A DNA stretch of 60,831 bases, the filler included, from Hausera hauseri (Eukaryota): the NCBI GenBank assembly GCA_046269625.1. It is 11 parts of 11 records of this genome, joined end to end, with 100 filler letters (N's around TTAATTAATTAA, not from the genome) between each part and the next. Parts side by side here need not be neighbours in the genome. Positions count along the whole stretch, not along the records: positions 31,048 to 37,962 come from JBJURY010052219.1; 10 more parts are not named here. One strand, written 5' to 3'. This document shows positions 5,703 through 37,962 of the stretch, piece by piece. Made by a program: the position numbers and the translations under genes. Within the stretch, counting starts at the first letter, position 1, and each line of letters starts with the position of its first letter. The notes beneath the pieces were generated by a model. It was not told the origin of the DNA and did no database searches. It saw nothing but the letters and a program-made list of their open reading frames with translations.

Positions 5703-8322
5703 CCCATGAAAGGCAGCTCCTACATATCGCTTCCTGAATGGATAGTTAAGAAAAATGCATGCACCAATGTCCATAATGAAGACAGCATGTGTTTCATGTA
5801 TTCTATTTTGTCAAAACTAGTCCAGGATCAACATAATGCTTCCCGAGTTTGGATATATGACAAAGTGTAGCACACATACAACTTCACCTGTATTCCTAGA
5901 TGAAGTCGCGAAATTTGAAAGCATTAACAACATCTCCATCAAAATCTTCGGACTGGAGGATATATTTTATCCTTTACATGTATACAAGGAGGAATTGGAG
6001 GATCATAGGGATCTGCTCCTGATAAATGATGGAGAACGAGGCATTTCATCTGGATCAAGATTTTTGAGCGCCTCGTAGGATCCCAAATATCCAAGCATAA
6101 ATCAAGGCTGGAAATATGCGAGATGCTTTTCCCATTTTAAAGGGGAGACAACCGCAGAAAAGCTGGTGGAGCACAAGACCTACTGCAATATAAACTATTG
6201 CAACCGAGCAGAATTCCCCAAGGAGGATTACCTGGAATTCAAGGAGTTCGAGAAGATGCAAGTGCCGATTGTCATAGTGTGACTTCGAGGCCATCCTCAG
6301 CCCAGTTCACAGCTGCAGCCCCAATCTGCAGCAAAGCAGTACCATAAGTTATCATCATACTGCATGTATGTCAAAGGACTGGACAAAGAAACCTACCTAT
6401 ACATGGGTCTAAATGCAGCAGCACATTTTATGCAGCGTCTGGAACAGTATGCCCACAAACTTGAAGACGTTGCAGCAGCATAAGGGCTACATGATGTCGC
6501 AGAAAGAAAAATGTTAATGGTGCAAAGCAGCAACATTCTACCTATACAAAAAGCTATTCACATGGGACAATTACAAAGTCAGGGATCACTTCCATTTTAC
6601 AGGCATATACCAAAGCGCAGCATGCAACAATTGCAACTTACGCTGCAAGACATGTACATATGTTCCCGTGGTATTCCACAATCTTAGTGGATACGATTCC
6701 CACTTCATTGTTCGAGAATTTGGTAATATTGAGGGGAACATTGATGTGATTCCAAATAGTGAGGAGAAGTACATCACCTTCAAGAAGCATGTGGGCCGCA
6801 TCACATTTCGCTTCATTGATAGCTTCCGCTTCATTAGCTCGTCACTGGACAGCCTCGTGAAGAACCTTCCAGCTGATGAACTCAAAGAGACAAGGAGGTT
6901 CTTCCCAAATACATTTGACCTGGTGAAGCGGAAAGGAGTGTTCCCCTATGATTATATAACGTCACTGAAAGCACTGTATGACGAAGCATTACCGACCAAG
7001 GAGGACTTCTATAATTAGATGTCACAGAGTCATATTAGCGATGCTGACTATGAGCACGCTCAAAGAATATGGCAGACCTTCCAGTGAAGGAAAATAGGGG
7101 AATATAGTGATATCTATTACCTCACAAATATGCTATTGCTTACAGATGTCTTCGAAAGCTTCTGGAATGTAACCCTTAAGAGCCACAAGTTAGATCCATC
7201 CCATTTCTTTACAGCTCCAGGAATGAGCTGGGCGGCGATGCTGCGCTATACTGACATAAGGCTCCAAATCTTGAAGGATTACAGTATGGTCCTTACGGTT
7301 GTGAGAGGCATCAGGGACGGAATCTGTCAGGTCATTTACAGGTACAGTGAGGCCAACAACAAATACATGACAGATTATGACCCATCCAGGGTATCCAGCT
7401 ATATAACATACCTGGATGCTAATAACCTCTATGGATGGGCAATGAGCAACCCATTGCACTATGATAACTTTAAATGGGTCGAGAATCCTGAAGACTTCCC
7501 AATATTGGACCTAGATCCCACTGGAGATGCAGGCAATATACAGGAGGTGGATGTGGAATACCCACAAAGCATCCACACAATTCAAGCTCTATAACAACTC
7601 GGTCTTTGGCAAAACTACGGAGAACATCTGGAACCGGATAAACATCGAGCTGGTATGTGACTGGAAGAGGTCAAAGAAACTCATCGCTAAGTCCAACTTC
7701 CACAGCAGCACAATTTACACGAAGAACCTGGTGAGCATCCATATTGTTAAGACATCACTTGAGTTCAACAAGCCTATATATGTGGACATGTCCATATTGG
7801 ATCTATCCAAGACCTTGATGCATGACTTTCATTACAACATCATGGTCCCCACATTCAAGGAGCTCCAGCTAATGTACATGGAAACGGACAGTTTCATGTC
7901 CCAGATCCACACAGATGATGCCTTTGAAAAATTTGAAAAATTGATGCAGTATATGGATACCTCGGACTATCCGAAGGATCATCCAAATTATTCAACTGCC
8001 AACAAGAAGGTCCTCGGGTGAAGTTTAAAGACGAGGTGAATGGGAATATCATCACCCATTTCGTGGCGTTGAGATCAAAAATTTATGCCATCGATATGCC
8101 ATCGGAGTTCAAAGGGCAACATTTGCTAAGGATATAAGCTTTGCAGATTTTGAGAGTGTTGCGGGAACAAACTCACATAGTCAGCGAGATGAAGAGGATC
8201 CAGTCCCGAGAACATCAGATGGATACGATTGTGTTACGAAGAAAACCCTCTATTGGTTCGATGACAAAAGGCACATTCTTGAAGACGGAATCAGCACACT
8301 GTTTCATGGACATGCTACACTA
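5703..8322 (+). pseudogene. polB: Polinton/Maverick protein-primed DNA polymerase B (copy 1), frameshifted and internally deleted
   Basis: GSSYISLPEW..KNA..NVHNED..CFMYSIL; RDHFHFTG..AACNNCNL; VFHNLSGYDSHFI; FIDSFRF; KGVFPYDY; YLDANNLYGWAMS; KLYNNSVFGKT; YMETDSF; KFKDEVNG. Confidence 0.93.
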
Positions 8323-9317: not shown

Positions 9318-12300
9318 ACAAAAACAGCCGCATCCCTTCAACAACAACAACAACCAGTAGGAAAAGTAAGGCATCAACAAGTCTGGATAAATACATCAGA
9401 ACCAGTACTCAGCTGCAAGAGCAACAGAGGGATCAGCAGGATCAGCAACAGTAAGAGGAACAGATACAACGGGAATCCGACATTAATGTTAAGTACGATC
9501 TGAACAAATCGTACGTGTGCATAAAAGCGAACATGTCGGCGAAAACAACAACGCAATTGAGACATGTTCCGCAAAATGTTCGCAACCAGGTGGAATCAGA
9601 AGTGGAGAAATTCAAACACCACCAATACTGCAAAGTGCAATATTATGCACTTGCACAATTTGAAAACGTTGAATGTGACAGGAAACAATGGTACCTGTCA
9701 CATCAAGCTGTACCATACGCCGAAGATTTCATCGCCCACGTAGGCGAGAAACTCGAGAAAATCGCTAACTACACGGAAAAGGGTAGTGGATGACGAATTA
9801 TACGAATTGTCACCCTCGGCTTTATCATAACAAAGTCGAGCGATATAATATATTTGTCCGGGCGATCATTCATACCGACACCTGCATCTTTGAAGCAGTC
9901 TCTGGCGGTAGTTAATGTAAAAAATACTAACGATGAATACTGTTTTCTTTACAGTATTCTCGCGGTATTGAAATATGACGAAATGGACAGACATAGTACA
10001 TCTCGTCCAAAACAGTATCAGAAATTTTTCCAAATTGGATTTCGATGAAAGCCGGATGCCAATGAAACTGAAATCCATTCCGGCTTTTAAACGGCGTAAT
10101 CCGACACTGGCAATCAACGCGTTCCGGTACAACACAATCGTAAAAATACCGGCGGATGAAGAAATTTACAAAAATCATGATGTGGATATAATCTATCGTA
10201 GTCGGAACCCAAATGAACGCTCAGTAAATTTGTTACTACTGGAACAAAAAGAAAAATACCATTACGTTGCACTGACAAATCTGGGCAGACCACTGAACAT
10301 GGAGCATGATCATTTCCTTCAAAACGAATACCGTGTAAATGGTGTCCTGTATGTCTTCATGGATTCAGGTCAAAAACAACATGGGAGAAACATGTGACGC
10401 TGTGCAGACAAAATTCGTCAGGAACCACAATGTCATGCCCGTCAAACAGGAACTCAGGTTCACTGATTGGTCAAAAACAGACAGTTCGGCATATGTAGTA
10501 TATGAGGATATCAAAGCTATTTTACCACGGCACAACATATATGACCAAAAACATGTCCCAATAGCCGTCGGTATATTAATTGTCCCAATAAAAGCCGCAG
10601 GTCAACCTCAATATTGATTTCCACGGATGAAATTGTGTACGCGATTTCTTGCAGCAGTTGCAAACCATAGCGGAAACTTAAATCGCACCCTGGTACAGTA
10701 GAAATAGCAATAAACCCTTAATGTAGACATGAAGATGAACACCTGACGTTTGCAGTCGCAGATGAACGTTACCTATATCACAAAATATTACCGTTCGATG
10801 CACTGGAACGGCTCGTACCAGATCACGACCATTTTACGGGTCGATATCTCGGAACTGCATGCAATTCATGCAATTTGGCAAGGCGTGCGCGGCCATTCCT
10901 ATCAATGGTATTTCATAACTTCAGGAGTTATGATTGTCACCATATTCTGAAATGGGCAATAAACTGATTTCCGCACTGGGAACTATCCATAATTCCGACT
11001 ACAATAGAGAAATACCTGTCACTGTCTGCTCGTATAAACCGGTTCCAGGTACGATTCCTTGACTCATTGCAATTTCTCAATGAATCATTGGCAAAGCTGG
11101 TAAATGCCTTGCAAGATGTGCCTATAGTACTTACGCAGTTCCCCGCACATATCGCACGTAGCAAAGGCACATTTCCATGACTTTGCAACACCGTATGAGC
11201 GAATTCGGATAGCAGAGCAATTACCGTCGCGATGGACAGCCATCGCAGATGATGAATACCGGAATAGCATAGAGGTATTGGACAGAACTCGGCTTCAGAA
11301 ACATGTTGGATTACATGCTCCATTATCTTAAACTCGACGTGTACTTATTAGCCGATGTGTTCCAAGCGTTTCGAGCGAAAGCGTTGGCTAAAGATAGGCT
11401 AGAGCCACTCAACTTTTATTCCATATCGGGAATGAGTTTGGGGTCAGTTCTAATGTCACTGGGTCAAGATTTTAGGCTGCTGCAAGATCCGGAAATGTAC
11501 CGACTGTTTGATGTTGGTATTCGCAGCGGCATGACATTTGTCAACAAGCATCCGGTTAGTGCTACCGATACAACATCACTGCTGTACATTAATATTAATA
11601 ACCTGTATGGCTGGGCGCTTTCGCAACCCTTGCCGTACGGTTCATTCGAACGGGTTGTCGACAGACAAGATCTGGACGACATAATGGTCAACCTACCACG
11701 AGTAGACATGGCAGGATCAGTCGGATACCTGATAGAGGTCGATCTCGTGGTATCGGATGAGTTGCATGACGTTTGGGACAATTTACGGGTCGCACCATTT
11801 AACCAAGGTCTGACAGGTTCAAAAGTGAAGAAACTGCTTATTACGCATGAGCCAAAGTTGAATTACGTGGTCCATTGGCGTCGCTACAGTTATACATGCA
11901 GCTCGGTGTACGCGTCACACAACTGCATCGTACAATCCGATTTGTTTAGGCTCCCATATTCAAGGCGTGCATAGATGGAAATTCGGAGAAACGAGCCGCA
12001 CTTGTACAAAGTTCGAAAAGGACTACTACAAGCTGAAAAACAATTCTCTGTACGGAAAACCAGTGGAGAATCTGAAAAAGCGGCTCAATGTGCGTCTACA
12101 TAACTCGGAAAAGCGGTTGGTCACGTACACGAGTAAGGCGCAGTTTCGGCGGTCAATGCACATTGCCGATGAATTGGTAGCGGGGCTGTTAAACAGGGAA
12201 GAAGTCGTTCTGGACCGGCTAAGTTACATCGGACAAGTTGTATTGGACCTGAGCAAGTTGCGAATGTATGAGCTACAGTATCGCGATTTGGCACGTTACT

Positions 12301-20809: not shown

Positions 20810-21316
20810 TGTCTCGTAAGTTCGTTGAATGTTCGTGATTGGCATTTTTTATATTCAATGGGCATATTCAGCAAAAGGATTCTTGGATTTTCGACCCCCC
20901 CTTTCGCATTTTTGGATGAACAATGTCCTTTTTAACTTTACACCATACACACCGATGGAATCTTCGATACTTCCACCAGAGATCTTATGTACGTTGGCAT
21001 AACGTGGAATGTTGGTTTCCTTACAATCATTTTCAGCTGTCATGATTATTGAAACTGCATCTAGTGCAATTTTACAGGTCCTATAGGACCATTTACTAAC
21101 GAATTTTGCACCAAGACAGTTTTTGACGACTTTCAATAATTCGTCGTGATTATTCGGATTGATTTTCACACAGCAATTAGTTTTCACGAATTCCAACGCG
21201 TCATTGAGTGTTTCTGTATATGAACTAGTTATTTTGGTTAAATAGATTTTTTGCTTCAAGCACGGTGCTGCTTGAGACAACAATTTACGAGCTAATATTA
21301 TGACAGAAGTTGTTCC
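20810..21316 (-). pseudogene. CCT3: Chaperonin CCT gamma (TCP-1 gamma) fragment, intronless
   Basis: GTTSVIILA..; KFVSKWSYRTCKIALDAV; KETNIPRYANVHKISGGSIEDS; after frameshifts KDIVHPKMR..VENPRILLLNMPIEYKK. Confidence 0.88.
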
Positions 21317-21931
21317 ACCCAATTGTAGTGCACTACCAAGGTTTCGTTTGCGCAATTTTAGTGCCAATTCTATGTGAGCTTCATTGTTTCTATATTCGTT
21401 AACAGTTTTCGTTAATTCCTTGAAAATTTCCAGACCTTTACAGTCCATTTTATTGAATTTGTCTGATTTTGTGTAATATATTACGGCGTAACGCTTCTTG
21501 TTAATCGACAAATACGGATAATAGACTTTTTTGAAATCCAATTTGATCGGAGCAATGAAATGACCGGTAATAAAATGGGCTACCTCTCGACCGAGTTTCA
21601 TAGCCGCCTGTACTGTATCAACGTCTAAATTGTTCATCACCGAATCAGTGTCCCCGTAGATAACCTTTACATCATGTGCATGTCCCTTAGACTTCGTAAA
21701 GTTTTCCTCGACTAACTATTTTGTTTTTTAAATCATAACTCGACCGTAACCAGTAAGTGATGATGAGATTGCTCCGGTAACTCTTGCCATTTCAACATGA
21801 TTTACAAAGCACGTGAGTTTATTTATTAATCGAATGGCCAAATAAGAATCTTTTAAACTATAGACTGCTAAACGACGGCGAGTTATTTCGTCGCCGTTTT
21901 GTAAACCGGCGATTATTTGATATGTCGCATC
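21317..21931 (-). pseudogene. POLD1: DNA polymerase delta catalytic subunit, three non-contiguous pieces
   Basis: [29 protein letters not shown] | [53 protein letters not shown] | IFKELTK..AHIELALKLRKRNLGSALQLG. Confidence 0.93.
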
Positions 21932-26238: not shown

Positions 26239-29200
26239 TGTCCATGGCTAATCTGCCATAAACATTAGTTTTCGCTATTATATTAGTTTCTAGATCTAAT
26301 TCATCTAATACTTTACGTCGGAGATCTGTAAATTTGGTGAAAATTCCTGCTATTACTTTAATTACTTCTTCCCGCTTATTAGTTTTAATCTCTATACTTA
26401 TAATATATGGTTGTTTTCGTCTATGTTTTCGTCTTACGTCTCTTCCAAGAGTTTTTAGTAATTTTCTTACGACTGAAAAGCAGAATATGTCATCCCTTGC
26501 TAATGACAGGAGCAATGGTGCACATTCTATTCGACCACTTAATGGTAGTGACGCATACTGCAGCAAGGCATTCCATACCTCATTAGGTGCTGAATCAGTC
26601 ATTTGTAACTTGGTTTTGGTTATTTCGGTTGCTGATTCTGGAGGTTCGTCATACACTATGGAACCTGGGGGAATATTCGTTTCCGGAATAATCTTTGGAT
26701 TTTCAATTGGTAATAGTGTAATTTTGGGATATTGGATCACATCAGACGTAAGTATGAATTCATCATCTTCTAAGATTTCAAACACTTCATCTTCATCGAC
26801 TACTTGTTGTTCCTTTTTGGATGTACTTACTGTATTGAATCCCAAATACTTTCGAGTAATGTCGGTCGTTGGGGTGGAACCTTATATTGAGGGAGTGGTG
26901 CAACTAATCTGTCATTGTAAGGTTCTATCCATTCTCCAATTAGTCTTGTTCTGACAAGTTCATATGAATATTCGTCGGAATCTATATCTATATGTCTCTG
27001 AGCAATTGGTACAATTACTGGAATTGGTCTTGCTTTATCGGTTTTCTCAAGTTTTCGTATTTCTGGAAAGGCTATTCGTAATGTTTTCTGGCTTTCTATT
27101 ATCCATGATATATTGTATTCTATTCGTACTGTCTTTAAGTATTCGTCTAGGCATCTTTGTGCCATAATTTCTGAGTTATGACCGTGATATAGGTCTAAAC
27201 ATTTGTAATTTCTGTTAGTTTGTTCCAGATCGTAGATGGCGGTTAGGTTTACTGGATTTACTTTCAATGTATTTAATAGTTCTGGCAACTGGCGTCCGAT
27301 GATTACTTTTCCTAGTAAATATTTATTCATAAATTCGCTTACCGACTCTTGTTGAGGATTGAGCGTTTATTGTATTCGGTGTACTTTGTAGTATCTGGTA
27401 TACTTGGATATACATGAATATTAAGAATTGTTTTTCCTTCTAAATTTTTGGCGGTGATTTGAGTTAGTCCTTTTTGGTCTCTGGTTATGCATCTGCCTAT
27501 AAGAATTATTTCTGTCTTGTGTTACAGGTTCATCCGTGGTTAATATGGGTGTTTCTTTAAGCAATTGTATTAAGTATATCGGGCAATTATCTAAGGGTTG
27601 AATTTGTCAATCTCCTTTGTAGGGATAATTAAGGAGTATCATAGTTTCTGTGGAAACTATTACTGTTTTGTTACCAATTCGTGACCGTGCTTCTCCTTGG
27701 TTAGTAATTATAGCGCATGGTGAGTCGTTTCTTTTAATCTGAATATCAGTCTTTTTAAGATAGACTTTATCAATACCTTCCATACAAATTGATCCTTGTT
27801 CGGCAATATATGCGAACTCTATTCGGTTAGATTTCTTGTCAACAAACAGTTTATCCCATTTCTGAACAACATCATTATCCATGCGCTGTAGTATTGCCTC
27901 CGTAATTAAGGTGGTATTACATGTTATTTCATGTTGAGAATGCCTATCTTCCTTAAACAAAGGTCTACTTGGAAAAATAAAATATGGAGATCCTTGATGT
28001 TAAGTTTAATTTTGTATTCTTGTCGTAAATTATTTAATTGTAGTGATAATGTACTTTCTCTTTCCCATTTATCATTTGGTAAGTTAAAATTCGTATCTAC
28101 ACTAAACGTACCAAAGATATCGGTTTCTTTTAATTGTATTTCTTTAAATATCCATGGTAATTCTATTTCAACTATAAGTTTTCCACAGAGTAGTTGTCTA
28201 AGGTCTTCATAGCGTTTTTCTTTTCCCATATATACGTTTTCTAATTCGACTATCAAATCACCTTCAACGTTCTCTATTTTTATTCGATTAATTTCTGGTT
28301 TCTGTTCGTCTTCGTTAGTTTTGTCTACAACTAAAAAGGTTAAAAGTAAGTTTTTGATTCCTTTCGTTTCTGGCCATAACACATATGAAAGTGTATCATT
28401 TTGAATGTCTGGTACCTTTCGCTCTGCTTGGTCTAAATAATTTCTTGTTATGAAGGGCTTTTCCAGAATGGAAATGTTGGATGCTAGTTTGGATGCAATT
28501 TGGTGGTGTTCTACTATGGGTTTTGTCATTAATAAACCCGTGAAGGCTGATTTAGTTTGTTCATTGAAAGTTACAGAACGGCGGCGTGAGGTGCTCCTTT
28601 CATCGTTATTACTTTTCCTATTGTCTGAAGAGTTTCCTTTCTCTTTTATGGAATTATTATAAGATTGCATTGTTGAGTCCGATTTTCTTTCATTGGCATA
28701 TTTGGAATATTCTGATACCGTATTTTTGTCATATCTAGATGGGGAAGTGTTCCTATTAGATGGTGAGTCATTTCGTCTAAAACTATAATCCGATGGCCGG
28801 GTATATCTATCATTATTGTTATTTGGTCTGGGAGAAGGGGTTCGATTTCGGTCTCTTGGAGGATATGGGCTGGGGTTCCTATTGTACCTATCCGACTCTC
28901 GTCTAAGTGGAGTATAGTCACGTCTTCTGTCATAGTTTCCTGATCTTGAATAATTATACCTATTTCTATTGTCATGACTAGAATTATACCTAACTCTACT
29001 ATCATCTCGTCGGTTATCTCTTTCTCTATTGTCGTTTCTATTGAAACTACCATATCTTTCTCGACTGTCAACTCTTCTAAATCTCTCGAGACTTTCGCTT
29101 CGCCTATCATTAGAATAATTATGTCTCGATCCTTCTGAACGATTAATTGGATATCGCGTTTGGCTATCATCTCGTTTCTAATATGTATTCATTAGATTCT

Positions 29201-30748
29201 TTCTATTCTCGTAACGACCGGAGTTTCGGTCGTTGTTGTATCTTTCTCTGCTAGGAAGTCTAATTCTGTTGTCATTTCTATCTCTTGTATAATCTCGTTA
29301 TCTATCGTTTATTGTATCATTTCGCTGTCGGTCATCCTAGTTTCCCCTATTTCGTTGATATTGTGTATCTCTTTGGTTATTATTGTAGTTGCTAAATGAT
29401 GGGTTATAACTTCCTCTTTCTGGGCTGTTGCTTCACTCTGGTGTACTGTTACCTTGTCGATTAGGACTTTGGCTTCTCGGAGAATCTCTCCAAAGTGAAT
29501 TGCTGCGATTTGGTACATCCGGTCTCACGAGTAATGGTGTCGTAGCCACTGCTGCTATTTGTGTTTGATTAGTCCATAAAGGTGTTTTATCTATCAGGGT
29601 AGCCATTCGTCGAGTATAATCTATCAGTTCAATAATATTGTTGGCTGTATGAAATTTAACTCCTTCTCATAAGAGTGGTAAGAGTCCAAGTACAAATTTT
29701 TCATGATCATGGCACCAAAAGTGTTTTCGTTATGGCCAAAATATCCAGTCATTGCTGTTTTGAACCTGTTAATATAGGTCAAAACTTCTTCATTGGGTTT
29801 TTGTTTATAATTTTGGAATTTTAGATATCGGTTTTCTTGTATATTAACCTGCTGATTTTGTAAGATCCTTTCTCTATGTTGCATCCAGGTTTCATCTATT
29901 CGTGCAGGTAGACGGGTTATTGCCATTCTCAAATCGTTATTCACATGTACTGGTAAGAGAGATATCTTCTTTGCATCATCCCAATACATAGCTGTTGCTA
30001 GTGAATCATATTCATCTAGGAAATCCTCCAAGTCTGATACTCGCCCTTCATATGGTTGAAGACGAGGAAGCGTTTGATATTTCTCTTCCCTTCTTCTTTC
30101 ATTACAATTTGGTAGACCGTAACCAACATTATTATTATTTCGATCGTAGTTGCGCTCATCTTGATGAGCCAACAGATTTCAATTATTCCTTTGTGGCTCC
30201 ATGTTGTTGTTGTCGGTGTCAGAAGTTTCACAAGATATGGAGCTTATTTCCACTGAGAATTCTGGTGATTGTATTTCTTCTAGTCGTGGAGTTATCCTTT
30301 CATCTTTCCTTAAGAATTCGAGACGTTCGTTTAATTGGTTAATGTCTTGGGCTAACGTTTCTATTTGATTCCTGGCGTGATCATTTTCCGCTTGTATTTG
30401 TTCTTGCTCGCATACTATAATTGCAACTTGATTTTGCATTTCGTTTAATTTTTGTCTTGATTGTCTTTCACTAGTATCTATCTGTTCTCTATTTCTATGT
30501 ATTGCAGCTATATGATCAATAGTCTGTTGTCGTATATCACATATTTGTCTGGAGTGGATATTGACCTCTTGTGCAAGTTGGCAAGTCCTCTCCGCCAATT
30601 CATTCAAGCCTATTTTATTATAATTCACTTTTTGCTCTATATGTGTGGTTCTTTCTTCAACTCTGTCCAATCTTATACCATTATTCATAACGTCTGTCTC
30701 TGTTATATCTCCTCCTCTTTGTCGAGGATATATTCTGTATTTCTTCAC
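26239..30748 (-). mobile_element. gag: LTR-retroelement-like gag (coiled coil + capsid + long R/S/N/D-rich region) followed by ~800 codons of unknown protein; decayed
   Basis: LQPYEGRVSDLEDFLDEYDSLATAMYWDDAKKISLLPVHV and FQNYKQKPNEEVLTYINRFK are capsid-like. Downstream ORFs 27924-28670, 27607-27960, 26827-27330 and 26239-26845 have no RT/IN motifs. Confidence 0.7.
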
Positions 30749-31047
30749 TTAATTGTCAAATACTATCATCCGTTCGGTTTTGTCTTATTCTTAAATCATT
30801 TAAATTTACTTGATGTACTTCATAACGTGTTTGGCATTCTAATTCGTGGTTAACTATTCTCTGTGCCAATTGTCGTGAATTAGGTGCGTTACAATATTGC
30901 CTCCTAAATGGCATTCGCCGTCCGTTAACTCCTCTTATCCATTGGTGNNNNNNNNNNNNNNNNNNNNNNNNNNNNNNNNNNNNNNNNNNNNTTAATTAAT
31001 TAANNNNNNNNNNNNNNNNNNNNNNNNNNNNNNNNNNNNNNNNNNNN

Positions 31048-31742
31048 TGTCGTAGAACGGTCGTTGCGAACAATATGCAACCGAAACCGAAATCAAATGT
31101 AAATAGTACATAGAACGAAACGAAGAACAAAATGATAATGCATTAATTATAAACAATTGAATCGTCGAAACACAGGATTGTAAATAGAACCGAACTATAT
31201 TGAACACGAAAAATCAATTAAAATACAAAATTAATTCCAAAAATTGCATATAAATAATGGCTCTCAACGTATATATAATCGATTTACAGAGACAATAGTC
31301 GTCATAAGTAATCAGTCATTATTCAACCGAGTTCAGTTAGCATTCAGTGGATATCATACTACCAGAAAGCTTGACGATTGTATTCAAGACGTTTAATTCA
31401 TTGATTCAACTTATTGTGTTGTCGAACTACCTTCTTATATTGCTACGGTATAATTTGTCATTGAATAAATTTATTTGTATCCTAAATTCTCATATAGTTT
31501 TCCGTCGCTCCTTACGAGGGACTTGCAGCACACTAAGTTCTAAAATCCTTCTAAATCTCATAGTTAGGTCGAGAATTTTGTAATCTACGCAATCACTGCA
31601 AGCAGTACACGCAAGTTGAAATAGTGCAAACATTCTAACGAGAACGTTAGAACTTATCTGCTTAAACAATATTATCTCTAATTTGAATTCTACTCATTGT
31701 TATAGTTGGGTGTTGGATAGGGCCCACCTTCAACTACTAACA
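31048..31742 (+). repeat. 5' LTR (~695 bp)
   Basis: TGTCGTAG...CTACTAACA imperfect inverted termini; TATATATAA at ~31270; AATAAA at ~31465; PBS immediately downstream. Confidence 0.7.
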
Positions 31743-31744
31743 TT

Positions 31745-31762
31745 TGGCGACCCTAGCAGGAC
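31745..31762 (+). promoter_or_regulatory. Primer-binding site, probably tRNA-Arg
   Basis: TGGCGACCCTAGCAGGAC, 2 nt after the LTR terminal CA; resembles the complement of tRNA-Arg 3' ends (...GGTCGCCA). Confidence 0.75.
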
Positions 31763-31992
31763 AGTTTGCACTTGCTAGACTTGACTCTCAGTGAAAAAGT
31801 AACGACACATTAGCGATCAGCGCTACCACATCAAATAATTGATTTGGGATTTAAAGAAATCCTCAGTATTATAAAGACATATTATTGATTCAAGAACGAA
31901 TATTGACAGACACGAGTTAGACGATAAATTAAATTGTAAAGAGAATATTAATTACCGTAAAACGTAATAAAGTTTATAAACAAGGTGAGGTA

Positions 31993-33190
31993 TTGATTAG
32001 ACGAACTTTATCGGAATCCAACTTAGCTAGTACTGAACCTAGTGATTTAGACGCTGTCGAGCAGCCTATCGAATTTAAAGTTCCCGATAAGAAAGTTAGA
32101 ACTCGTAAGATAGTTAAGCAAAATTTGATAAACGTCGAAAACATGGCTGAAAACCAAGCTGTAGCACAGAAGTTGGATATTTTTACATTTGACTCGTTTA
32201 ATTTGCCCGCGTATGACGGAGATCCAGACGGACTCAATGAATTCTTAAGGACATTAAAGCTGCATGCAGAAGGTGTTGGACTAGCAGCTAATGTGATGAT
32301 TACGCGTTTGTCATTATACTTGAAGAATCTGGCCGCCGATGCCTATAGTGAACTTACAGATGACGAGAAGAAAACTTGGTCTTCACTGGTAGGAGCCCTG
32401 AATCGGAAATTGTTACCACCTGTAATTCCGCAGCAAAAACTCATGGCTTTTCAGAATATAGTTCAACAAAAGGGTGAATCGATAACCCAATTCGCTTTTG
32501 CCTTAAAGAAATTGGCAAATAGTTACGTAAGCACCTTATGAATAGCAAATATAGCTAAGGCTAAAAATGAAGCAGAACGCGAAGCGTAGAAAAGGCAAGC
32601 CCTCCAGATTTGGATGTCATGATGATGACACAGTTAATAAACGGTATTTGGTCTAAGGACGTAGTAAAACAGTTGATTTTGGCACGTCCAGAGAATTTCG
32701 ATCGAACGTTGCAATTAGCTCAGGACTTCGAAATGGCATTGGCACGATATACTAGAGACAATGACAGAAATGATAGAAATAACGATCAAGGTGATCGAAG
32801 CAATCGCAATAATAGAAACGATAGACGATTTAACAAGAATTGCGGAGATCGGAACAAGAAAGGTAATTATGATCGCAGAAACGATCGATACAGTAATCAG
32901 AATTTTGACAATAGTCGATGTAGCTTCTCTAATAAATCAAATTACCAGACAGATAAACGCCTAGATGACTCTAGAAACTTTAGTCGACAGAATGACAATC
33001 GGAATTATGATAATCGCCAATACGGAGACTCTAGACAGGCTCCGTCGCAGCAAGGATGCAATAGAAATCCGAGTAGGTTGAAATCCCCGCTAAACGAAAA
33101 TGGCCGACAAAGAGTTGGAAGAAATGGCCATTTAGTCTGTTTCACATGTGGACAAGAAGGACACATAGCGAGATCGTGTCCGAATCCGCA
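31993..33190 (+). pseudogene. gag: gag (capsid + R/N/D-rich region + CCHC zinc knuckle)
   Basis: LPAYDGDPDGLNEFL; LSLYLKNLAADAY; FQNIVQQKGESITQFAFALKKLA; QLINGI; CFTCGQEGHIARSC at 33138-33179. Stop and frameshift at ~32541-32610. Confidence 0.9.
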
Positions 33191-36100
33191 AAGTGTCTCG
33201 TTTGTGGAACCTATTAAAACTTACGTAATTAAAAGCGAAAATTTAGAAGTAATTTACAGTGTCCGTGGAGATATGGATGTGATCATCGAGATACAAGACT
33301 TACGACGCTTCCTAAAGGCTCAGCCTGATACTAAAGACCCTAAAGTTTTAGTGCCTAGAAACGAATATGAGCACAAATTACGACTAATGGAAGTTTGCCA
33401 TGGCCTGCGTGAACCAGAAACGGAATATGAACGTTCCATTGTCCCACCAAGGCTGAGTGATATGGCACGAAAAAAGAACGTTCCTACAATAAACAAAAGG
33501 TTAGATGAAATAGAAAAGCCTGAGACTCCAAGCGAAGTAGACTTAGATGTCGAACCCGAGTATACTATAAAAAAGGTAACTAAGGAGGCAGAGGTCGGCG
33601 GAAAAGAGGAATTTCTTGAACCACTTATACTTAAAATTACCAAGAATAGAGGCCGCAGCCCATCACTGAGACGGAAACGTAAAGACCGTTCGAGATCCCA
33701 AATGATTAAGGAGAAGCCGAACACAAAGAGAGAAACCGAAATCGCGTTAGGGAGCGACGCAGAGTGCGCCTCGAACGTTCCAGAAATTAATTTAGTTACG
33801 CCCGGAGAATTGAGTGAGCTAACAGAATCTGTAAACGAGATAAACGACATATGTCCCTTACCAACTAGCGAAGGGGGAACGGAACAAGAGGAGAAACTCG
33901 ACCCTAAAAAGTGGAAAATCAGACGCTCGTGGAAAAATGCAGAGGAGTTAAAAAGAATGAGGATGAATTGTCGCAACCCAGAGGTATTACGACAGAATCT
34001 AGAGAAGCTCAAAGCAATGAGCGAAGAAGTGGATATTTCTGGTAAGGAACAGCAGTTTGTAGAAAGACTATATAAAAATATGAAACTATGTAGCGAAGGG
34101 AAGCTAAGTGAAGCTATAGACTTAGATCAGCCCGAAGAAGTGGCAAAAGAAACGCTAGTTCAGTGGAAACGTGATTTAAAACGGTGGATCAAACGCAAGA
34201 CGAAATGTCCGGAGACGTGGAATAAAACTACCCAAGGCACTAAAACTAGGATCAACGAAGCTCAGTCGTTATTAGCTACATTAGAAGCCAACCCGAAATT
34301 AAAAAGAGCAGTACGTAATTTGGAGCATGTCATGGATGAAATTAGATTCATCATAGTCGAGCAACTAAAAAAGAAGCCGGTCAAGAAACGAGACTCAAAC
34401 GACTTAAAGATGTTAGGCATAGATGTATTAGACATTCCGCTCTTAACGGAAATGATAAAAATCGCTTCTACTGCGACAAGGCAATATACCAGTCTGGAAA
34501 ATCGTTTTAAAATCGAAGTCGAAAAACGGTCGCAGATATATAGTCTAAGAAATAGGATCATGCACCCAGCTAATAATGAAACACAGAAGATAATTCTGAC
34601 TTGTATCCTTGACTTCGATGAATATAAGGACGAGTTTGACTATGCCTACCGGATCATCGATTTTATTAGAGGTCTAGATGATAAGCTAGAAGACGCCTGC
34701 AAAATGTTAAATAAAGCGATCTTGGCAAAGCCAGAAATTGCTAATCAGTTGAAAGAATGGTCCGAAGTAATAACGAGGCTAAGTAAATTAGTGGCCAATC
34801 GAAAAAGGAAATTTCCGGAAAGTGAACTTACAGTTAAGAAGCAACTGGAAGAAGACGCCCGAAATCTGGATACGATGAAAGCAGAGATTGACATTCGAAC
34901 CCAATTCGAGGCGCTACGTCAATTAAACTTTATGGAAAAGAAAGAAGAGATGATGGTGCAAAATGATACATATAAAATGATCGAAGAAACAAACTTTTTG
35001 CGAAAGCGAAATGCGACTTGCGATTTCTACCCGCAATTAAGAGATGTCCGCCTGAAGGGAATACGCTGGTTGATAGCCAACCCTATCGAAGAAATTTCGA
35101 TCCCAAATTTTAAAATCTTGGACTTTTTTCCCGAATACCGCTCAGTCGTTAAAGAAGCGGTTAAGTTCTTACACCGTCCCCAAGAATGGAGAGATGGAAC
35201 GGATCAAAGACTTCATACCGAACTAAGTAACATAAAGAACGACCGCCACCTTAACTTCGAAGAGATCAAATTTGTAAAAAAGGTATTAGATGTGATAGAT
35301 TCGGATTCAAACAGTATTAACGAGATGTACGAATTAGCGCTATTGATGGCAGAAATGGCAGAAATTAGTGACGAGAAACTAAGACAATTGTTGCAGCGGA
35401 TACAGCAAGTCTAAGAACTTGCATTAAGATGAAACAGAGCGATAAGGTTAGACGAACTAGTTAGAGAACTCGAAGTCTATAAAAACAAATACGCCCTTAC
35501 AAAAGCCAAAAAAGCTGACAAGTCATAATCCTTTCAAAGATGGCAAAGAGATGTCACGTCTTAACTAACGAAATATCAAGAAAAAGGTCTAATCTCACCC
35601 GAAGAATTATGTTCATCATTAACACTGCTCCACCAAACATCCGCTAATGGGAGATGTTTCCTAACGACGAAAATGGTCCAAATGCAACAGAAACTACAAG
35701 AACTCAGAGCAACTACATGGCCCGCAGGTGTAGATAGGCCAACCGATATACCGTAGAGGAGCTATCAACTACCAGATAATGAAAATAAACCGGATTGGGA
35801 GGCATAATTAGACGCAATGATTGCCGAAAATCCGAAAACCCCAATACGCATAGACAAAAGATTCAATGTAGAAATGATTTTGGACCCAGCACAAACCGAG
35901 AAAGATTTGACTCAGTTGATCGAAATAAATCTCACGGAAATTCAGTTAAGACGGTTAGTTCCTACTCTAACTAAATTAGCAAGAGAAGGTACGATTTTCA
36001 GTATGGTACCTAAACTTTTACTCAAGGAATGTGCCAAAATCTTAAAAGCAGAGGCAGAAGAGGCGATTCCAGTAAAAATAGTATCTGACTGGATGGACGA

Positions 36101-37010
36101 GAAGGAACAAGAGTTCACTACGCGCTCCATTGTAAAGGATGTATTATTGTGGATCAAGAATAACGGATATGCCCATGAGCTGAGCTATAGGCTCTACTTT
36201 AGAGGAAGGATACTAGACGAATCGGAACTATTAATAGAAGTCGGAATTATTTCGGGTGAAGTAAACCGGTTAGTGGTAACCACCGCTATCGACGAGATAA
36301 AGGAAGAGGCTATAAGGAAGGCTAAAACCGAGCAACAAGTAGGACGAATAATGGGAGTCCGAGATGCAGCAGTATATTTCGAGTACCTACAGACAGATGA
36401 AGATAATGAGCAATATGATAAAAATTTAGTACCGATCAATGACAATGTACCTGCTGCAACAAAGCATAAGCGTCCCGTCGGTAGACCACGGACGATACGA
36501 GAGGAAAACGACTACAATCGAGACCTAGTTAAGGAATTGAGACAAATGTCCATACCGACTCTTAGTGTGGATAATGAGGAACAGAACGAACTGATAAAAG
36601 ATTTGATACGAATAGTAAACCACTCCAGCCTCAGCGGTGATGTGTTAGATGAGAAGGAGAAAGCCATATTTAATGCCGCCAAGGCCATGAAAGGTCTCAG
36701 ATGTAAACTAGCCAAGAGTACCTTGAGCGATGAAATGATAATCGAGAAAATTATGGTAGAAAACACCATACAGGAATTGAGAAAAGTATTGCTATATCTG
36801 GCCATCAAAACCAACCCGAACGGAGAAAATAAATTTAACAAGGCTACTAGCTTGGCAAGGAAGGCTGCCATGAAACTGCCCCGAGAAGTGGACTGGACGA
36901 ATCTATTCGAAAAAGAAGAAGAGCATCAAACTAGATTTCCCTTCGATAACAATAGATTTGGAGATTTGCTACAAAATGTAGCTGGAAATCACAGAGGAGA
37001 TGAATCAAAC
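33190..37010 (+). CDS. Large unknown charged/helical region fused to gag, with a ubiquitin-like domain (36066-36278) and AT-hook (36468-36491); interrupted at 35414-35817
   Basis: Long ORFs 32610-35414 and 35817-37154; RLYFRGRILDESELLIEVGIISGEVNRLV resembles the ubiquitin C-terminal half; KRPVGRPR. No D(T/S)G, YxDD, RNase H or integrase motifs seen. Confidence 0.6.
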
Positions 37011-37962
37011 TTTCTAATCAACTTACTAACCATGATGATGTTGATAAAGCAAATGGACGCAGTCACAGTATATGATTGTGACAAATTTAGACTTGGCCAG
37101 AAATACTCATTAATGATTTGGAAATGTGTGAAGACGCGAGGCCCGACAGATTAGAAACAAAAGAAAAGAGTTATGTATTATACCAACAACACGAACTAGT
37201 TACCCTAGATGGAGTAGAATGTATGTTGCGACGATCTCGCAGCATCTTCCATTGTGGGCTGTTACATGGACACTCATCAATAATCAAACCGACAACTCCA
37301 CCAATTCCGATGAATTTAGAGCGACAGCATTGTAAGCAAGCTAGAGATACGGGAATAATAAAATGGGAGGGCATGGAATTAGAAATGTAACAAGGAAAAA
37401 TAATCAGGGTGTATAAAGTAGCGGCAGAAAGGTTAGATATGCACACCGGGCATTGTCAAGGTGCCGAATACGACACCGGGAAAGGACTAGAATCGAAAGT
37501 CGTAGTAGTAGACTTCTATGAAACCAAAATGCGCGTACAAAAGGTGATGTTCCATAGCGTTACTAAGCTTTACACAGAAAACCACAAGTGCCACATTCAG
37601 GATGGCACATGTCCGTTTCGACGTTCTGTAGTAATTTGGGAACTTCCAGCCAAGACCGATTGTAATTTTATTAGAATTAAAGAACTTAAGTTCAATGAAA
37701 CGACAGGGAAACAATACATAAGTAGTACAGAAACTAATTCTAAGACACGAGAAGTGGTAGCAGAACAGTCCACACCTAGTATACTAATTTCTGACACTCA
37801 TGGACTAAAGTTTTTAAAGAAAGATGTACTCACAAGATGTGATGTCATAATGTATGCCACAAATTATGGAGCATTCTTTGTAGCTGAGACGGAAATAAAC
37901 ACCAGAACGTTTAAACTGGAGACTCAAGACATTCGGATCGAAGATTACTTGAAGAACAGAGA
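37011..37962 (+). pseudogene. env: env-like glycoprotein related to chuvirus (Jingchuvirales)-type fusion proteins; cut off by the contig end
   Basis: Signal-like FLINLLTMMMLIKQMDA, then VYDC..YSL..LEMC..LYQ..CMLRRSRSIFHCGLLHGHSSII..C..TG..GHCQGAEY..VVV..C..GTC..W..DCNF..RC..ATNY. The Cys/motif pattern matches what I recall for chuviral G. One frameshift (~37115) and one stop (37388). Confidence 0.75.

Follow-up and report, generated by a model that had tools for sequence, protein, structure and literature searches.

Positions 31048-37962 of the Hausera hauseri DNA analyzed here (assembly GCA_046269625.1; the whole stretch of 60,831 nucleotides is called the window) carry a long terminal repeat (LTR) retroelement that is, in our judgment, quite probably a decayed and compact Ty3/gypsy relative of Burro-like or GAG-ENV-POL elements, cut by the end of its contig and with pol located downstream of env. 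The window consists of 11 unrelated contigs with 100-nt spacers of N around TTAATTAATTAA between them; the element is one entire contig (JBJURY010052219.1) bounded by these artificial spacers, and the neighboring contigs in the window are not its genomic context. On the plus strand, the contig reads LTR-like start, primer-binding site (PBS), gag, a long accessory block, a hydrophobic segment, and env. It ends about halfway through env (position 309 of 653 in the matching profile), ahead of any 3' LTR, so that at least ~1 kb of env plus everything downstream is unseen and the label 'pol-less' is not demonstrated. An earlier note on this DNA had proposed a structural-only element, either a satellite or part of a bipartite system, on the premise that env-bearing elements place pol between gag and env. 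That premise overlooks the GAG-ENV-POL elements (PMC13524379) and Burro (PMC6431247) (here and below, statements drawn from cited papers refer to the available parts of those papers). A missing pol between gag and env is not the sign of a pol-less element, and as the contig contains nothing 3' of mid-env, the structural-only headline is not supported; the element is probably not polymerase-less. The note's own alternative, pol downstream of env, is the likely option and an arrangement already known; pol would lie beyond the contig end. What does survive of the note is its view that the interval between gag and env is neither pol nor a random insert.

Anatomy of the element

The features of the contig are as follows.

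31048..31742, plus strand: putative 5' LTR of 695 bp, TG...CA, with a TATA-like site at 31270 and AATAAA at 31464; seen once
31745..31762, plus strand: tRNA PBS, likely of Arg type, 2 nt past the LTR end
32143..33185, plus strand: gag, with a capsid-like part, an Asn/Arg/Asp-rich linker, and one CX2CX4HX4C knuckle at 33138
33186..37010, plus strand: accessory block of 1,275 codons in the frame of the gag end and the env signal; 34% D/E/K/R
35343..35804, plus strand: helical stretch with the outside homologue P0003 (E 3.7e-11)
36057..36290, plus strand: possible ubiquitin/SUMO-like domain (weak; three profile matches below cut-off)
36465..36494, plus strand: GRPR motif, presumably AT-hook-like (pattern match; no profile match)
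36501..37010, plus strand: helical region at the position of the BCL-2-like domain of Burro; helical only in a model of pLDDT 36
37011..37055, plus strand: hydrophobic segment, likely an internal env signal sequence (top 15-residue hydropathy 1.53)
37056..37962, plus strand: chuvirus/gB-type (class III) env, of which the N-terminal half is present before the contig ends

Gag is, by its profile match, of the Ty3/gypsy type: it matches Retrotrans_gag at E 4e-4 to 9e-4, short of the curated cut-off, and its knuckle matches zf-CCHC at E 6e-7. The most hydrophobic 15-mer of the frame 32571-37151 starts at 37011, and the sequence beyond it matches Monjiviricetes_fusion (E 3.6e-13, profile positions 39-309 of 653). 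The LTR-PBS-gag-interval-env anatomy described in the earlier note is borne out, including the CCHC knuckle in gag and, ahead of a chuvirus-like glycoprotein, a hydrophobic segment that is likely its signal sequence. To this we can add that the contig stops mid-env and that gag, interval, and env are all damaged in this copy: gag is interrupted by two stops (32539 and 32587) and shifts frame near 32600-32615, the interval has six stops, and env shifts frame near 37110-37150 and has a stop at 37388. We infer that the frame changes in gag and env reflect decay, and the copy is inactive.

The LTR-like segment starts with TG, and its closing CA at 31741-31742 is followed after 2 nt by the PBS at 31745; it is present once in the contig, so the direct repeat is not confirmed. 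Judged from sequence, the primer is likely tRNA-Arg; by eye, 10 of the first 12 nt of the PBS agree with Arg_CCG and with one Arg_UCG_UCU 12-mer in supplement 1 of PMC13524379. Among the related contigs introduced below, cover of the 5' two thirds of the LTR (31048-31509) is thin (summed depth 19 and 670), whereas summed depth reaches 34,822 over the LTR 3' end and the PBS, and U3 therefore appears divergent among subfamilies.

Env was compared with supplement 2 of PMC13524379, which has 229 rows of env domain I-II sequence. TNY occurs in 17 of these and closes the block just past the last cysteine in 6, which are the six Schmidtea entries; the insect chuvirus-type entries shown there end differently. 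The env described here has TNY in the same end-of-domain place and also has a TP before TNY, G-x-x-F-x-K, and F-x-E in common with the Schmidtea entries, all by eye. Homologue searches with env returned 0 of 478 candidates for the C-part and 0 of 1,913 for the X-containing reading, which is weak evidence. The window has 104 other open frames of 85 or more codons; a scan of 74 of them found no env match, 8 more were scanned separately, and no env-pol junction is accordingly seen in the rest of the window.

The block between gag and env

By its stop pattern, the accessory block is coding-like. The segment 32571-37151 is a single frame with six internal stops, all within the block between 35412 and 35805, and across 33186-37010 the gag/env frame has 6 stops, while the remaining five frames have between 27 and 129. 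Order-2 Markov simulation (300 sequences) never brought any frame below 43 stops and gave open runs of up to 234 codons. Counted from stop to stop, the open frames are 947 and 448 codons; the 934 and 445 aa reported earlier were counted from a later codon, and the long frames themselves are real. The claim that the interval is not a random insert is upheld by this excess of openness and by the family-wide cover described below. The block has the same A-rich coding-strand bias as env, and its composition (34% D/E/K/R, 1% His) differs from that of the pol open reading frames (ORFs) of other elements in the window (20% and 5%). Profile searches of all six frames found no Pfam pol family in the block, in line with the lack of pol motifs noted before, whereas the decayed pol ORFs of other window elements match RVT_1, RT_RNaseH, rve, or Integrase_H2C2. 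Searching the contig with seven of the window's pol ORFs by tblastn gave a best E value of 0.06.

A search of 1.84 billion representatives with the 3'-most 1,200 interval codons gave a single match, P0003 (E 3.7e-11), a 150-aa sequence from one 2,157-nt ENA contig. P0003 is 32% identical over interval codons 720-873 and has no stop at 5 of the 6 stop positions, which makes it likely that the 947- and 448-codon frames derive from a single ancestral frame; the retention of the helical pattern at 32% identity points to constraint at the protein level. This fragment is the one homologue of the block, and no fold was assigned with confidence. Residues 210-947 gave 0 of 7,998 homologue candidates at E 1e-3, which is weak evidence; the ESM Atlas gave no usable match for 33186-35411 or 36048-36980; PDB sequence searches gave nothing below E 1; and no RNA runs were listed as carrying the contig. 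As a gauge of noise in the profile searches, 8 of 17 interval windows gave matches to unrelated families at E 4e-4 to 0.15. Structure prediction followed by Foldseek, proposed earlier as a check, gave single-sequence models of pLDDT 36 and 53 that matched nothing at E 1e-3, a blank that does not exclude folds.

Contigs related to the element indicate that the block is repeated along with its surroundings. Logan contigs of run X1, which is possibly the source sample and hence not independent, were aligned at 80% likeness. Related X1 records numbered 12,400 (5,234 of them less than 90% alike) and covered 30 of 30 bins of the element, including 17 of 17 in the accessory block, where summed depth ranged from 1,341 to 25,114; such depth does not equal copy number. 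Transitions accounted for 1,385 of the 1,807 variable places among these contigs, and the interval-env junction was spanned by one record ~84% alike. Of 69 joints, 15 were listed, with a largest skip of 256 nt, and 6 of 1,513 loose ends were listed, so that this survey is not exhaustive. Given this cover and the homology to P0003, the accessory block belongs to the element family. Locus searches with the env or P0003 alignment confirmed 0 among 9, 98, 351, and 151 pattern matches.

Within the block, the segment 36057-36290 was picked by eye as ubiquitin-like and scanned before the comparison with Burro was made. Its matches were UBX (E 0.035), Rad60-SLD_2 (E 0.046), and ubiquitin (E 0.078), with no others and all below cut-off, and it sits 240 codons upstream of env; this placement is suggestive, but the matches are weak. 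The region 36501-37010 had no Pfam, PDB, or Atlas match. An Arg/Ser-rich basic patch is also present at 33651-33701; this patch and the AT-hook-like motif could bind nucleic acid or serve as nuclear signals.

Proposed placement of pol and rival explanations

The reading that we prefer, a Burro-like or GAG-ENV-POL element with pol behind env, has published precedents. In nematodes, bryozoans, and flatworms, env-bearing Ty3/gypsy elements have only gB-type env and the order GAG-ENV-POL, and the gB-type ectodomains are bordered by either a signal peptide or two membrane segments (PMC13524379). Burro/GYPSM1, a giant Ty3/gypsy element of planarians, encodes in its ORF1 Gag, CCHC, Smc, MATH, Ubi2/SUMO-like, BCL-2, Env, PR, dUTPase, RT, RH, and IN, with a Gag of the Retrotrans_gag type and env in frame between gag and pol; it exceeds 30 kb with LTRs, its ORF is ~4,900-5,100 aa long with 2-3 knuckles, several of its accessory domains were detected by HHpred, and an action of these domains on host ubiquitin and cell-death pathways is proposed there as an untested idea (PMC6431247). 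Burro is abundant and expressed in planarians (PMC8532177, PMC11410931). By extension, an intact copy of the element described here would produce LTR-driven genomic RNA primed by tRNA-Arg and a single long polyprotein of gag, accessory block, env, and then pol. Translocation of the env ectodomain into the endoplasmic reticulum would begin with the hydrophobic segment (37011), a C-terminal env anchor beyond the contig end would return the chain to the cytosol, where pol would come next, and host signal peptidase together with the element's own protease would separate Gag, Env, PR-RT-RH-IN, and the parts of the accessory block from one another. In this picture, the accessory block would be a scaffold of coiled coils that bears a ubiquitin-like module and perhaps a BCL-2-like one and that, by analogy with Burro, may act on host ubiquitin and cell-death pathways.

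Several observations weigh against this interpretation. Neither pol nor a 3' LTR was seen in this copy or in any sibling. The 0.7-kb LTR, short leader, and single knuckle differ from Burro, with its more than 30 kb and 2-3 knuckles, and the env of Burro has been likened to gypsy Env and mononegavirus fusion proteins (PMC6431247), so that the env class may differ. The likeness of env to the Schmidtea entries is by eye only, and the eight-cysteine pattern occurs in the insect entries as well and is therefore not discriminating. In the accessory block, single-sequence searches found no BCL-2, MATH, BIR, ankyrin, or Smc match (BIR and ankyrin modules could sit beyond this contig), and the ubiquitin-clan E values are no better than those that unrelated families reach in the noisy windows noted above (8 of 17; E 4e-4 to 0.15). 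The single-sequence AlphaFold model of the ubiquitin-like piece had pLDDT 53 and matched no ubiquitin fold; VIA-align of this model gave a best Z of 5.7 with no ubiquitin fold among the matches listed, which does not exclude the fold.

Among the rival explanations, a genuinely pol-less, non-autonomous family is the least improbable, though still unlikely. Such a family would consist of LTR-gag-accessory-env-LTR, make particles, and take Pol from a helper; spelled out, it would be a widely copied element whose polyprotein comprises only Gag, an accessory part with ubiquitin-like and anti-death modules, and a class III Env, the particle-making half of a two-part enveloped retroelement. No pol was found in the 6.9 kb, the layout is repeated among related contigs, and mosquitoes commonly carry defective BEL/Pao copies with env (PMC7642597), all of which fit this explanation. 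The contig, however, stops mid-env, short of where pol would follow, env resembles by eye those of GAG-ENV-POL elements, and Burro is a precedent for gag, accessory block, and env in one frame ahead of pol (PMC6431247). An enveloped element that lacks pol and depends on a helper, as such a family would be, did not turn up in our literature searches.

The remaining rivals are all improbable. That a host gene or other sequence was recently inserted into, or replaced pol in, one gag-pol-env copy is very unlikely: although most of the interval has no family assignment, it is in frame at both ends, has no introns, and shares the A-rich strand bias of env, diverged sibling contigs cover all of it with no skip above 256 nt among the joints listed, a sibling record ~84% alike carries the block across its env junction, and the single match among 1.84 billion representatives reveals no conserved host family. 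Less credible still is that the interval is an eroded pol whose one remaining role, to let translation read through to env, has kept stops out of it. The interval occupies the usual place of pol and is close to it in length, pol being ~1,000-1,250 codons, but its composition is far from that of the window's pol ORFs, tblastn with these ORFs and profile searches in six frames gave no pol match (best tblastn E 0.06), and the helical pattern kept in P0003 points to protein-level constraint. The least probable is an Anakin-type BEL/Pao element with a chuvirus glycoprotein whose pol was deleted. The env family, Monjiviricetes_fusion, would suit it, and defective Anakin copies are frequent (PMC7642597), but a deletion leaves 1,275 extra codons unexplained and the end motif of env is of the Schmidtea rather than the insect type. 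Gag, moreover, matches Retrotrans_gag and no BEL/Pao gag family at E values up to 1, given the profile families that we take to be BEL/Pao gags.

Other elements of the window and comparison with known systems

Other contigs of the window hold further remnants of mobile or viral sequence. A second decayed gag element lies on the minus strand at 26239-30947, with a coiled-coil frame, a Retrotrans_gag match (E 7e-4), and long Arg/Ser/Asn/Asp-rich repeats, followed by more than 700 codons of broken frames with no Pfam match and no pol before the contig end. Its coding strand is also A-rich, and it could represent a second gag-accessory family; tblastn between it and the element at 31048-37962 gave nothing better than E 0.9. 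At 20858-21715 on the minus strand, a DNA_pol_B piece (E 9e-31) and a Cpn60_TCP1 piece (E 8e-22) share a single open frame, which lies 1.7 kb upstream of a gypsy integrase frame of the same orientation; the two pieces may be host-gene fragments captured by, or lying beside, an LTR element. DNA_pol_B_2 fragments and an Erv1/Alr fragment at 6518-7015, 11273-11971, and 2164-2640 suggest decayed Polinton-like or DNA-virus-like insertions in several contigs, and the last contig has near its start inverted repeats of ~370 bp (55960-56331 and 58882-59248; 84% identical) that resemble decayed DNA transposon ends.

Two other LTR elements were considered as relatives of the element at 31048-37962 and rejected. 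Anakin shares a chuvirus-like glycoprotein within an LTR element but is a BEL/Pao element with env after pol and no accessory block described in the available text (PMC7642597); it was set aside because no pol lies between gag and env here and gag is of the Ty3/gypsy type (PMC7642597, PMC10084718). Troyka is likewise an LTR element with a CCHC-type gag, but it has CG...CG ends, a CX2CX8-10HX4C knuckle, and no env (PMC12440569), compared with TG...CA, CX2CX4HX4C, and an env here.

The closest known systems, besides Burro, include the GAG-ENV-POL errantiviruses Smed_errantivirus_1-6 (Platyhelminthes group C1a, HSV/gB-type env), which share with our element the env class, an env placed directly past the gag frame, and, by eye, the end-of-domain motif and cysteine register, and differ in that no accessory block is described for them in the available part of PMC13524379. 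In that survey, the search for GAG reached no further than 5 kb ahead of ENV-POL, the six Schmidtea entries were given neither an LTR nor a PBS, and Burro is not mentioned in the part available. With Burro/GYPSM1, the shared features are an N-terminal Retrotrans_gag domain with CCHC, a long in-frame accessory block, an in-frame env after it, and possibly, though weakly here, a ubiquitin/SUMO-like domain shortly ahead of env (PMC6431247). Differences from Burro/GYPSM1 are the 400-nt leader without an upstream accessory ORF and the distance of ~1,620 codons from the gag start to env. The 695-bp LTR and 400-nt leader argue for an element smaller than the giant Burro, and the short LTR and leader, the single knuckle, and the lack of a MATH or BCL-2 match together suggest a compact Burro relative.

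The element thus likely works like Burro or a GAG-ENV-POL element, with membership in either not proven. The gag-accessory-env(-pol) layout is a known kind, and compact forms of it may already be described; the accessory block, which has almost no known relatives, is the sole part that might be new. If the preferred reading is true, the element connects the description of Burro with the GAG-ENV-POL survey, two literatures that in their available parts do not cite each other, and adds a compact, short-LTR member to the little-studied Burro-like gag-accessory-env-pol polyproteins.

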